Shown here piece after piece: positions 946 through 3,854 of a stretch of DNA of 64,000 nt. The translations under genes and the position numbers were made by a program. The DNA is taken from contig PZKD01000125.1 in assembly GCA_003034855.1 (NCBI GenBank), positions 19,521 to 83,520 on the forward strand. The letters are read 5' to 3'. The notes under the pieces are model-generated. The model saw nothing but the letters and a program-made list of their open reading frames with translations. It searched no databases and was not told the DNA's origin. How positions within the stretch are numbered: position 1 is the first letter of the stretch; each line of letters begins with the position of its first letter. This stretch comes from an archaeon SCG-AAA382B04 (GTDB taxonomy: Archaea > Halobacteriota > Methanonatronarchaeia > Methanonatronarchaeales > Methanonatronarchaeaceae).

Positions 946-1737
946 CTATTCAAAAACTATTGAAGCATAGCCAACTACTTGAGAGGTGTCTCCCGTTGCT
1001 TCTGCACTTGTTTTATATTCTAATAATTTTGAGTTAAGTTTATTTTTGTTTGCTAATTCCATAGAAACTCCTATAGGTCCATAACCACATATAGAGAGAT
1101 TCTTTTCCTTTATTAACTCAAAAAATTTTTTAGTGTTTTTTTGTTTTATTTTTTCGATTGCTTCCTCATCTTGTTTACGCGCTATATTTTTTGGCTGGTA
1201 ATGTGAAAAATCGCTGCTGCTTATTATCGCAACATCTTTTCCTCTTTCGGTTATTTTAATAATTCTCTGAGATAGTTCTTTAACTATCTCTAAATCTTGA
1301 ATTGATAACATGATAGGAACTATTTTGAAATCCTTTTTTAAATATTGAAGAATTGGTATCTGAACTTCTATTGAATGTTCTCCCATATGTGCTTTTTCTT
1401 CAACTATACCTACTGTTTTTAATTCCTCATTCACATCTTGATCTACCTCTATTTCTCCTAGTGGAGTTTCCCATTTTTGCTGTGAAATGGATATGCCTGT
1501 TCCGGTTCCTTGGTGGCTTGGCCCAATAATTATGTATGTTTCAGCATCTCTTAGAGCCGATATTGATCTGGTAGCTACGTCTCCAGAGAACCTATATCCT
1601 GCATGGGGTGAAACAGTTGCTTGTGCTTCCTTTTCTTTTGTTTTTTCTGGGATTTGAGTGATATAGCTTTCTATTTTTTGTTTAATTTCTTTTTTTGTTC
1701 TAGGATAGAACCTGCCTGCAACTACTGCTCTTCTCAT
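946..1737 (-). CDS. MEMO1-family protein (AmmeMemoRadiSam system protein B)
   Basis: 263 aa. N-terminus RRAVVAGRFYP, plus SPHAGYRFSG and GEHSIEVQIPIL motifs typical of the MEMO1 family. It holds the conserved position between rps2 and mvk. Confidence 0.8.
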   Translation of the reverse strand: MRRAVVAGRFYPRTKKEIKQKIESYITQIPEKTKEKEAQATVSPHAGYRFSGDVATRSISALRDAETYIIIGPSHQGTGTGISISQQKWETPLGEIEVDQDVNEELKTVGIVEEKAHMGEHSIEVQIPILQYLKKDFKIVPIMLSIQDLEIVKELSQRIIKITERGKDVAIISSSDFSHYQPKNIARKQDEEAIEKIKQKNTKKFFELIKEKNLSICGYGPIGVSMELANKNKLNSKLLEYKTSAEATGDTSQVVGYASIVFE

Positions 1738-1777
1738 TTGCTTACTTAAAATATTTTGTTCCTATTTGATTTAAGTT

Positions 1778-1827
1778 GTGAACTACCCCTACCTAACTCA
1801 CTTCGCTTGTGAGGAAGGGGCTTCCTG
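1778..1827 (-). repeat. IS end module (tnpB 3' side, RE-like) forming an imperfect hairpin
   Basis: Sequence gtgaactacccctacctaactcacttcgcttgtgaggaaggggcttcctg. ctcac(1797-1801) pairs with gtgag(1809-1813), and cccct(1786-1790) pairs with agggg(1816-1820). It overlaps the tnpB stop codon. Confidence 0.6.
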
Positions 1828-3010
1828 TTTCTATGACGAAGCTTGCAGACACATCTCTAAAGTTGGTGTCCGTAGAGGCTTCAGTCTCCACAGGCGTGAC
1901 TTTGGCTCGTCCCTCGCCTAAACTTTTTTCTAAAATATTCTGTGCAGCATTATAGTCTCTATCCGTTTTATATCCACAACTTGGACAGCTATGTTCTCGT
2001 TGCCATAGGGGCTTATTGGTTTTAACACCACATTGGGAGCATTTTTTGCTAGTATCTTTTGGGTCAACCAGAACTACTTCTATACCAGCACTCTCAGCCT
2101 TGTACAGAAGCAACTGGATGAACTTCCTCCAACCAGAATCAAGCGTGTTCTTGCTATTCATCTTGCCCTGAACCATGCTAGAGATGTTCAAATCTTCCAA
2201 CACTATTCTATCGTATTTATTGACATAAGCATTAGACAACTTATGGAGAAAATCCATACGCCTATTTTTCACCTGTTCATGAAGTTTGGCCACCCGCTTT
2301 CGCTGTTTCTTGTGGTTGTTACTCCCCTTCTCTTTCCGGCTTAAATTTCTCTGGGCTTTCTTTAATTGTTCTTCGGCTTTCTCCACATTCTTTGGATGTT
2401 CAACTCTGTTACTATCACTATCAACAATAAAATTCTGGATACCAAGGTCAATACCTACAGCTTCAACGTCATCAGAGTTAACTGAGTTCTGTTTTTCTGT
2501 TTCTTGTTCGGTTTGGAAGATTGCGTACCATTCACCAGTGTTGTTTCTTTTGATAATTACGCCTTTGGCTTCTTCTTCGAGTTCTCGATGCAACTGAATC
2601 GGTATCTTCCCTATCTTCGACAACCTAAGTTTATCCAATCGGTTCTCTGTCCTTTTTAGCTTGAATCCTGACTGATTGTACTCAATAGTCTTAAACCATT
2701 CCTCCCCCTTACACCGTAGTTTCCCAACTTTATATCCATTCCTTTTCTGCTCAGATAGAGATTTGAGGTTGTCGTATAGTTGTTTTAGCACCATTTGTAG
2801 GACTTTGCTGTGAACCTGTTTTAATTCAGTCCACTTTTTCTTGAGTTTTGGAAGTTGTTTCTGAAGTTCGTAGCGAGAAGGTGTTTCGTCTTTCTTGTTT
2901 AGTTTTTCAAGGAAGTGGTTGTAGACTTGTCGACATAGGTCAAGATTTTTCTCTAGCACCTTCTTATCTTTTTCTGAAGGATAGAGACGATACTTATAAC
3001 TCAAATTCAT
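1793..3010 (-). CDS. tnpB: TnpB (IS200/IS605-family OrfB, RNA-guided DNA endonuclease class)
   Basis: 405 aa. N-terminus YKYRLYPS. RuvC-I GIDLGI, RuvC-II VLEDLN, zinc finger CSQCG...CPSCG, RuvC-III DRDYNAAQNI. All catalytic residues appear intact. Confidence 0.9.
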   Translation of the reverse strand: MNLSYKYRLYPSEKDKKVLEKNLDLCRQVYNHFLEKLNKKDETPSRYELQKQLPKLKKKWTELKQVHSKVLQMVLKQLYDNLKSLSEQKRNGYKVGKLRCKGEEWFKTIEYNQSGFKLKRTENRLDKLRLSKIGKIPIQLHRELEEEAKGVIIKRNNTGEWYAIFQTEQETEKQNSVNSDDVEAVGIDLGIQNFIVDSDSNRVEHPKNVEKAEEQLKKAQRNLSRKEKGSNNHKKQRKRVAKLHEQVKNRRMDFLHKLSNAYVNKYDRIVLEDLNISSMVQGKMNSKNTLDSGWRKFIQLLLYKAESAGIEVVLVDPKDTSKKCSQCGVKTNKPLWQREHSCPSCGYKTDRDYNAAQNILEKSLGEGRAKVTPVETEASTDTNFRDVSASFVIETGSPFLTSEVS

Positions 3011-3120
3011 TTTTCCATTTCTTCTTCTATTTTATTCCTAACAAATTTGGAGAGATTTATTGCGTTTTTTTCAAGCCACTCCTCGTGCTTCTCTTTTATA
3101 GTTATAGATTTCGTCTTCAT
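3007..3120 (-). CDS. 37-aa ribbon-helix-helix-like micro-ORF, translationally coupled to tnpB
   Basis: My own translation: MKTKSITIKEKHEEWLEKNAINLSKFVRNKIEEEMEK. The pattern is a beta-strand (SITI) followed by two helices, as in CopG/RHH proteins. Its TGA stop overlaps the tnpB ATG (ATGA at 3007-3010). Confidence 0.5.
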   Translation of the reverse strand: MKTKSITIKEKHEEWLEKNAINLSKFVRNKIEEEMEK

Positions 3121-3163
3121 CTTTACAATATAATTATTATTTTTATTGTTTATAAAGTTTGTA

Positions 3164-3211
<48 letters not shown>

Positions 3212-3230
3212 ACCAAACAAGTTAAAAAAA

Positions 3231-3854
3231 TTAGAGTTCAGCTTCGAAGTCTTCTATTGAGTATTTGAATTTTTCTTCGTCGCTTAATCTTCCTTGTTGT
3301 TTTACTGTTTCTCTTGCTAATAACCAATAGACTGTTGCTAGTGCTTTTCTTCCCTTGTTGTTTGTGGGTATCACTAAGTCAACGTTGGATATCATGTTGT
3401 TGCTATCGCATAGTGCTACTACTGGTATTCCTGATGTGTTTGCTTCTTTTAGAGCTTGTTTATCTCCTATTGGATCAGTTGCTAGTAATACTTCTGGTTC
3501 TACGTATGATTCTAGGTTTGGGTTGGTTAGTGTTCCTGGGATCATTCTATCGACTATTGATTTTCCCCCAACTATTTTTGCAAATAGTTTTGCGGGTTTT
3601 TTACCGTATTCTCTGGCTGAAACTACTAATATGTCAGATGGATCAAATTGTGAAAAGAATTTTGCTGCTGTTTTTATTCTTTTGTCTGTTTCTTCTATAT
3701 CAAAAATGTATAATCCATCTTCTCGTGCTTTGTAGATGAAGTCTTCTATGTCTTTGGTTTTATGTTGGGTTCCTATATGTACTCCTGTTTCGAGATACTG
3801 TTCTGGTTTAATAAGTGTTTGAGTTCCTTCTTCGACCATTTCGATTTCTTCCAA
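3231..3854 (-). CDS. rps2: 30S ribosomal protein S2 (uS2)
   Basis: 207 aa with a recognisable uS2 sequence ([10 protein letters not shown]..., [15 protein letters not shown]). Sits in the eno-rps2 context. Confidence 0.95.

Follow-up and report, generated by a model that had tools for sequence, protein, structure and literature searches.

Small genes for ribbon-helix-helix (RHH) proteins have been described beside tnpB, the gene for an RNA-guided nuclease, in both archaea and bacteria. Altae-Tran et al. (PNAS 2023; PMC10691335) reported an archaeal RHH/MazE-TnpB group with a rearranged RuvC-III motif (Asp to His), which is apparently immobile and was proposed to function as a toxin-antitoxin system. 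Zedaveinyte et al. (2023; bioRxiv 10.1101/2023.11.20.567912) described open reading frames (ORFs) for Arc-like RHH proteins next to TnpB in IStrons and in insertion sequence (IS) elements. Most recently, Moon, Zedaveinyte, Wiegand and Sternberg (2026; bioRxiv 10.64898/2026.09.24.754181) found that a bacterial IS605 Arc protein binds and represses the transposon promoter, working with a set that includes elements composed of only arc and tnpB, and in which some Arc proteins are of 50 amino acids (aa) or fewer and had not been annotated. Here we describe a 37-codon ORF that lies directly upstream of tnpB in an IS200/IS605-family element of the archaeon SCG-AAA382B04, within a 64,000-nucleotide (nt) stretch of contig PZKD01000125.1 that is referred to below as the window. 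An earlier reading of this DNA, made from its letters only, had called the arrangement a departure from the standard layout, a view that the three studies above have overtaken: the RHH-TnpB pairing is already known as a kind (2023-2026), and the window holds a new example of it. In our literature search, no paper was found that describes this haloarchaeal/Methanonatronarchaeia family specifically. Our preferred interpretation, to which we assign a probability of roughly 0.6, is that the ORF encodes a minimal RHH protein, is the first gene of an RHH-tnpB operon in a mobile element that lacks tnpA, and represses its own promoter.

The ORF runs on the minus strand from 3120 to 3007, where it reads ATG AAG ACG ... 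GAA AAA TGA and yields the product MKTKSITIKEKHEEWLEKNAINLSKFVRNKIEEEMEK, just as the sequence-only reading had given it. A length of 37 codons alone would carry no weight, as ORFs of 25-50 codons are numerous around 3007-3120 in the window. It can be counted as a gene because it is conserved upstream of tnpB across genomes and is subject to purifying selection. For eleven intact copies, the ratio of non-synonymous to synonymous substitution rates (dN/dS) was mostly 0.05-0.16 among pairs with unsaturated synonymous sites, while more distant pairs showed saturated synonymous sites with a dN of only 0.2-0.6. The differences between these copies numbered 572, 299 and 1034 at the first, second and third codon positions, i.e. 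there is a third-position excess. An alignment of 92 sequences from AT-rich and GC-rich hosts shows that Trp15 and the Leu-Ser of an N-L-S motif are invariant, and that Asn22 is nearly so. Taken together, these comparisons indicate that the 37-aa ORF is a genuine protein-coding gene under purifying selection.

The gene is present in four of four genomes of the order. In the host genome (G000; 1.42 Mb, 35.5% GC), paralogues at C100:7672-7815 and C2:27255-27413 each overlap the start of a TnpB-like gene, a decayed copy is found at C2:20478, and a standalone paralogue of 58 aa lies on contig C56. The genome of Candidatus Methanohalarchaeum thermophilum (G001) gave up to 17 matches (14 in a stricter search), nearly all of them directly upstream of TnpB-like genes, which are of two types. 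Two of the copies in G001 are identical to proteins of that organism, which places the host, a halophilic archaeon related to methanogens, in the same family (Methanonatronarchaeia). The homologues in Ca. Methanohalarchaeum thermophilum and in Natrialba magadii are annotated as hypothetical proteins. Across a sample of the phylum, the small gene was found in 35 of 401 genomes and 25 of 121 genera. A profile built from 15 copies, with a paralogue of 40 aa at its head, matched 205 proteins in a clustered database of 5.8 billion sequences; the named matches were all archaeal, and include Methanohalarchaeum, Natrialba, Haladaptatus, Halorubrum and others. The family comprises 843 clusters at 50% identity (1.84 billion representatives searched), and all named relatives are haloarchaea or Methanonatronarchaeia. 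The expectation that the small gene would prove real and be retained at homologous tnpB copies is thus borne out by paralogues, orthologues and the low dN/dS values.

The product had also been likened to RHH DNA-binding proteins on account of a strand followed by two helices, and this likeness is upheld by predicted secondary structure and by similarity to the profile of the antitoxin family CcdA (PF07362). CcdA was matched by 64 of the 92 family members over profile positions ~1-45 of 71 (best E=3.9e-6), with most of these matches falling below the Pfam cut-off. The curated cut-off is 22.4 bits, and it is exceeded by standalone paralogues (25.0 and 27.6 bits) and not reached by tnpB-linked members (13.7-16.9 bits). 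The matched N-terminal, DNA-binding segment of CcdA is an RHH domain. AlphaFold2, run with the 92-sequence alignment, gave a best model of the 37-mer with a mean predicted local distance difference test score (pLDDT) of 91.5, in which residues 1-9 are extended and residues 10-18 and 23-36 form helices. The predicted structure thus has the topology of an RHH monomer, an extended N-terminus and two helices, within the ~40-45 residues expected of such a domain. DSSP calls no strand in this monomer; the strand of an RHH protein pairs only in the dimer. Structure prediction had been suggested as a check on the earlier proposal, and the topology of the AlphaFold2 monomer agrees with an RHH protein. 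In a profile comparison, hhalign aligned only the strand of the family profile to an approximate CopG sequence, with a probability of 2.8%. We regard the RHH fold of the 37-aa protein as well supported, though not demonstrated, by these sequence comparisons and models. The protein would then be a minimal DNA-binding domain and a distant relative of the CcdA-type N-terminal domain.

The small gene and tnpB are closely tied. As had been pointed out previously, the stop codon of one overlaps the start codon of the other: the ORF and the tnpB ORF (1793..3010) share 4 nt, with the ATG of tnpB contained in ATGA. Overlap or abutment, in the range of about -16 to +6 nt, is seen in nearly all other copies. 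Among haloarchaea, tnpB lies immediately 3' of the small gene in 21 of 23 parsed loci, with a stop/start spacing of -4 to +6 nt (e.g. GTGA overlaps or TAGATG). Nmag_2315 of Natrialba magadii, with 49 aa, stands 3 nt before the gene for a TnpB of 419 aa, which has the same three Pfam domains as the TnpB of the window and is 42% identical to it over the full length. These arrangements support translational coupling of the small gene to tnpB. Three divergent types of TnpB follow the small gene in genomes of the order, namely the ISDra2-like type of the window, a type that starts MKAEKTI... and is referred to here as T3, and a type of 435 aa with Gly in place of the Glu of RuvC-II. Most TnpB genes are without it: in the host genome, ~4 of 11 matches to the TNB domain have a small ORF of this or a second type (described below) upstream, and in G001 an ORF of the window's type is found upstream of about 14-17 of 87.

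Some further occurrences of these genes were recorded. The genome G001 bears a very heavy load of IS200/IS605 sequences (87 TNB-domain and 24 Y1 TnpA matches), many of which carry frameshifts or stops, and several of its decayed tnpB copies stand beside an intact RHH ORF. At C56:39007-39420 in the host genome, the 58-aa paralogue adjoins a divergently oriented ORF whose N-terminus also matches CcdA (E=5.5e-7), giving an RHH-type pair without tnpB. On a metagenome contig (locus L050, JGI contig Ga0373630_0009143, 340-6190), a phage-type integrase gene is followed first by a homologue of 37 aa (P0012) and then by a run of small ORFs, none of which gave a Pfam match. As this locus looks like an integrated virus or plasmid, the RHH family is evidently not confined to TnpB elements.

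The DNA upstream of the gene holds a putative promoter and a candidate operator. A TATA-like box is found 28 nt from the ATG, an AT-rich box occurs at the same distance in other copies, and no Shine-Dalgarno sequence precedes the ATG, a combination that implies a transcript that is probably leaderless or nearly so. An imperfect palindrome (3125-3149) sits between the TATA box and the start codon. In the 42 nt upstream of the start, autocorrelation shows a 9-nt periodicity (z=+2.5 in the window and a mean z=+2.0 in 24 haloarchaeal copies), although the compared copies are related by descent, so that the statistic overstates their independence. The pattern is plainer to the eye in GC-rich haloarchaeal copies (L061-L087), which carry three tandem units of ~9 bp before the start, within ~40 nt upstream, e.g. 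ATACGCATA-G-ATACGCATA-ATACGTATG. Groups of copies whose RHH proteins have different residues in the N-terminus and strand also carry different repeat units: CGCATA occurs with VVRRKNI, CGTGCATA with TVKRKTI, and TTTGTGTA with VATRKNI. This variation of the tandem units alongside the protein N-terminus is a candidate case of operator-repressor co-variation, and the repeats appear to match the pattern expected of an RHH operator that overlaps its promoter.

From these observations we propose the following scheme, in which the placing of the promoter, the operator, and the ability of the protein to dimerise, to bind DNA and to repress are all inferred. An archaeal promoter of the TATA type, situated between the left-end hairpin and the ATG, would drive transcription of an mRNA with little or no leader, and tnpB would be translated by termination-reinitiation at the ATGA overlap. 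A dimer of the RHH protein would bind repeated or palindromic DNA between the TATA box and the start codon, thereby repressing both its own gene and tnpB, and hence also the guide RNA that would be processed from the tnpB transcript. The outcome would be that expression of the nuclease is kept low, as experiments have shown for the bacterial Arc proteins of IS605 elements. A regulatory role had already been suggested in the sequence-only reading, and it is supported here as the best interpretation of the small gene.

Several results weigh against this scheme. Most concern the fold: the 37-mer of the window itself had no Pfam match, and four of the five AlphaFold2 models reached a pLDDT of only 54-65. 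The poor score against CopG belongs here too, as does a profile search of PDB sequences, which returned no RHH protein and only chance matches to lipases. Foldseek with the 37-residue model returned 0 matches in the PDB, the model probably being too short for the method, and a best E of 6.3 in BFVD, which is not significant. The failure to find a fold or profile match among solved structures is probably explained by the shortness of the 37-mer. Regarding the operator, the DNA in which the palindrome and the periodicity of the window occur is very rich in A and T, and neither counts for much alone; common descent moreover inflates the periodicity statistic. Finally, a search for RNA data matching this sequence gave none, the only matching runs being DNA metagenomes from brine or seawater.

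A second small ORF that occupies the same slot is informative about the target of such a protein. At C67:89161-89283 (minus strand) of the host genome, ~5.6 kb beyond the right edge of the window, an unrelated ORF of 41 aa (MPTLYIRDLTEEEKKKLDIAKAKSDANTWKEFILELVEDEG) overlaps the start of a T3 tnpB and follows TTTAAC and the same left-end hairpin. The 41-aa type (three loci, L091-L093) also occurs at C100:56154-56270 in the host genome, where it precedes a TnpB 56-62% identical to that of the window, and at C1:335144-335257 in G001, where it precedes a T3 TnpB. The 41-aa sequence has a strand-helix-helix pattern; neither Pfam nor a word-index search for database homologues gave a match, and AlphaFold2 produced only a low-confidence model (pLDDT 66). 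All four combinations of the two small-ORF types with two TnpB types are thus found behind one family of ends. A comparison of the window with C67:89k shows agreement as far as the TATA box; immediately beyond it the sequences part, over the stretch that reaches to the ATG and also in the small ORF. A role directed at DNA is thereby favoured over a co-evolved complex with TnpB. Another reading, to which we give a low probability, is that archaeal IS605 elements exchange a promoter-operator-repressor unit as a cassette between nuclease lineages.

The alternative that survives best, which we nonetheless consider unlikely, is that the RHH protein behaves like an antitoxin, binding TnpB or the TnpB-guide RNA complex and blocking target binding, so that the two proteins form an addiction pair. 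This hypothesis was published for the archaeal RHH/MazE-TnpB group together with an AlphaFold co-fold (PMC10691335). It can draw on the nearest Pfam family being an antitoxin, on the tight operon coupling, which would fix the stoichiometry of the partners, and on the intact RHH ORFs beside decayed tnpB in several G001 copies, although survival of the small ORF is also what its ten-fold smaller mutational target would lead one to expect. The protein, at only 37-40 aa, matches no more than positions 1-45 of 71 in CcdA and is without the C-terminal toxin-binding tail, and the TnpB of the window is canonical and not of the rearranged RuvC-III (Asp to His) type. Moreover, one type of RHH protein occurs with three types of TnpB, and two unrelated small ORFs occur with the same TnpB types; such mixing of partners argues against a co-evolved protein-protein interface. 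In a related proposal, which we hold to be quite improbable, the RHH micro-protein, alone or besides repression, brakes the TnpB-guide RNA nuclease directly. The element would then combine mobility and a canonical active site with a toxin-antitoxin-like addiction pair built on an RNA-guided nuclease.

It is very unlikely, in our estimation, that the RHH protein instead serves as an accessory to transposition, binding the ends of the element to modulate excision and integration by TnpA, or else the biogenesis of guide RNA, in place of transcription. In favour of this, some 50 nt separate the gene from the left-end hairpin, and TnpB genes of different types are accompanied by the left end and the RHH gene as a unit. 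Against it, single-stranded hairpins are the substrate of IS200/IS605 TnpA, and the major groove that RHH proteins read is that of double-stranded DNA. In addition, exchange of the small ORF leaves the hairpin unchanged, and what differs is the promoter-proximal stretch between the TATA box and the ATG. An accessory function is among the possible roles listed by Zedaveinyte et al. (bioRxiv 10.1101/2023.11.20.567912), but the experimental precedent is repression of a promoter (bioRxiv 10.64898/2026.09.24.754181). The last alternative, an ORF without protein function (due to chance, or delivering ribosomes from upstream, with its conservation reflecting constraint on left-end DNA or RNA), would suit the frequency of short ORFs in the region and the missing Pfam match of the window peptide, but is already disfavoured and extremely improbable given the low dN/dS, saturated synonymous sites and third-position excess, the Trp and N-L-S motif held invariant across 92 sequences from distant archaea of very different GC content, the standalone paralogues unlinked to tnpB, and the CcdA profile matches.

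Repression by the RHH protein would take place in the setting of a bounded element, the features of which are listed in Table 1. The element belongs to the IS200/IS605 family, with a tnpB-only (IS1341-like) organisation to which the RHH gene is added, and it is, or recently was, mobile. Its neighbours are a Memo-like gene (946-1737) and rps2 (3231-3854), with enolase and rpoK also nearby, a set of genes that identifies the host as an archaeon. The gap between rps2 and the Memo-like gene is 1,493 nt in the window versus 51-59 nt in G001 and in G003, a genome of the same genus as the host; the insertion is absent from this site in both of these and in G002. The flank TTAAATCAAATAGG (1761-1774) matches the intergenic sequence of the empty site in G003, which is why the right end was placed at 1775.

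Table 1 Features of the RHH-tnpB element in the window (positions are those of the window).
Feature	Position	Strand	Basis
Whole element, 1,446 bp: left end, promoter, RHH gene, tnpB, right end	1775..3220	-	Empty-site comparison
TTTAAC 5' of left end, candidate target-adjacent motif (TAM), 4 nt after the rps2 stop	3221..3226	-	Recurrence; TAM function putative
Left-end subterminal hairpin, CTTCCCTTCCTC...AGGTGGGGGTG	3170..3206	-	Sequence and fold
TATA-box-like TTTATAAA, 28 nt upstream of the RHH ATG	3149..3156	-	Sequence; promoter function putative
Imperfect 12+12 palindrome ACAATATAATTA / TATTTTTATTGT, candidate operator	3125..3149	.	Repeat search, 83% complementary
RHH-type micro-gene, 37 aa	3007..3120	-	ORF and comparative evidence
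ATGA, tnpB start overlapping RHH stop	3007..3010	-	Sequence; kept in nearly all other copies
tnpB, 405 aa	1793..3010	-	Pfam and alignment to ISDra2 TnpB; RuvC D-E-D, CxxC...CxxC zinc ribbon
Right end, subterminal hairpin overlapping the tnpB 3' end, terminus ...GGTAGGGGTAGTTCACAAC	1775..1821	-	Sequence and fold

The ends themselves recur. The hairpin noted earlier as resembling a left end is real (3170-3206), and it shares CCCTTCCTC...TTAGGTxGGGG with the right-end hairpin (1783-1821). TTTAAC, or TTAAC/TTTAAA, is found before the same left end in G003, at five loci of G001 (L025, L028, L031, L033 and L038), and at C67:89k and C100:56k in the host genome. The left end is identical at 72 of 84 positions to that of the second element, at C67:89k, and is recognisably alike in the copies of G003 and G001. 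On the right-hand side, the terminus …GGTAGGGGTAGTTCACATC closes the element at C67:88k, and GGTAGGGGTAGTTCACA(A/T)C is the terminus common to the window element and this second element on the same contig. Related elements are present in multiple copies in G001, and in one of these the RHH-tnpB pair is immediately preceded by a remnant of tnpA. Matches to Y1 TnpA (PF01797) number 4 in the host genome and 24 in G001, and these genes could mobilise the element in trans. The sequence-only reading had raised domestication of TnpB as a possibility. It finds no support, given the empty sites in three relatives, the intact ends and multi-copy kin of a bounded element, the canonical D-E-D triad, and the presence of Y1 TnpA in the genome.

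The TnpB of the window has the Pfam domains HTH_OrfB_IS605, OrfB_IS605 and Cas12f1-like_TNB, and aligns over its full length with ISDra2 TnpB (8bf8/8h1j, E=1.3e-41). Its GIDLG, LEDL and DRDYNAA motifs align with GVDVG, TEHL and DRDENAA of the ISDra2 protein, which hold the catalytic triad. No Rfam family of guide (omega) RNA was found at E<=1 in the region 1400-3400. Elsewhere in the host genome, the T3 TnpB at C67:88134-89227 (364 aa) and the 435-aa protein at C2:27406-28713 have Gly at the position of the RuvC-II Glu (LIVLGDL and FVGDL, respectively), while the T3 orthologue in G003 keeps the Glu (LIVIEDL). These Gly-for-Glu TnpB-like proteins resemble the published 'RIIr' rearranged groups. 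Two frameshifted TnpB copies on different contigs (C1:213777-214980 and C50:2649-3852) gave identical search scores and represent either a recent duplication or an assembly repeat; neither has a small ORF of either type upstream.

The closest parallel to this locus is with the Arc-like repressors of IS605/IS607 elements and IStrons, in which a tiny RHH gene is likewise found inside a transposon and beside tnpB. In both, repeated or palindromic DNA overlaps the promoter, a putative one in the window; repression is shown for Arc and proposed for the window. The Arc cases come from bacteria, with E. coli as the test host, and in many of them arc/tnpA are transcribed divergently from tnpB. In the window the host is archaeal, the putative promoter is of the TATA type, and the RHH gene runs in the direction of tnpB, whose start it overlaps. 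The likeness drawn here is one of layout; the window protein belongs to an archaeal family whose only profile similarity is to CcdA. That family, PF07362 of the antitoxins of type II toxin-antitoxin systems, is the only curated one matched by relatives of the window protein, through its N-terminal RHH segment; the window protein ends at residue 37, without the C-terminal toxin-binding region, and has no CcdB-like partner.

The RHH/MazE-TnpB group resembles the window in its archaeal host and in an operon in which tnpB comes straight after a small gene for an RHH (or AbrB/MazE) protein. It differs in having a rearranged catalytic site and being described as non-mobile, where the window shows a canonical D-E-D triad in a bounded element with insertion polymorphism. 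Membership of this group was considered and rejected, the window having neither the rearranged RuvC-III nor the immobility that mark it.

The remaining relatives are the tnpB-only archaeal elements of the IS1341 group, including the haloarchaeal ISH/ISHwa elements (PMC3119063). These have in common with the window subterminal hairpins with no terminal inverted repeats, a zinc-ribbon TnpB, diverse and often decayed copies, and tnpA elsewhere in the genome. The published descriptions consulted do not mention a small upstream gene, and tnpB-only elements of halophilic archaea are worth checking for one when they are annotated: a gene of 37-40 aa, without functional annotation in the records consulted, is a regular component of the elements described here. 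To the RHH regulators of TnpB that are encoded by transposons, the present work adds a putative archaeal family that is widely distributed (25 of 121 sampled genera). It also offers a compact candidate pair of archaeal repressor and operator, for biology and for the building of tools. Its carriers include cultured haloarchaea such as Natrialba magadii, and these cultivable hosts could show whether the expression of TnpB limits itself in archaea as it does in bacteria.

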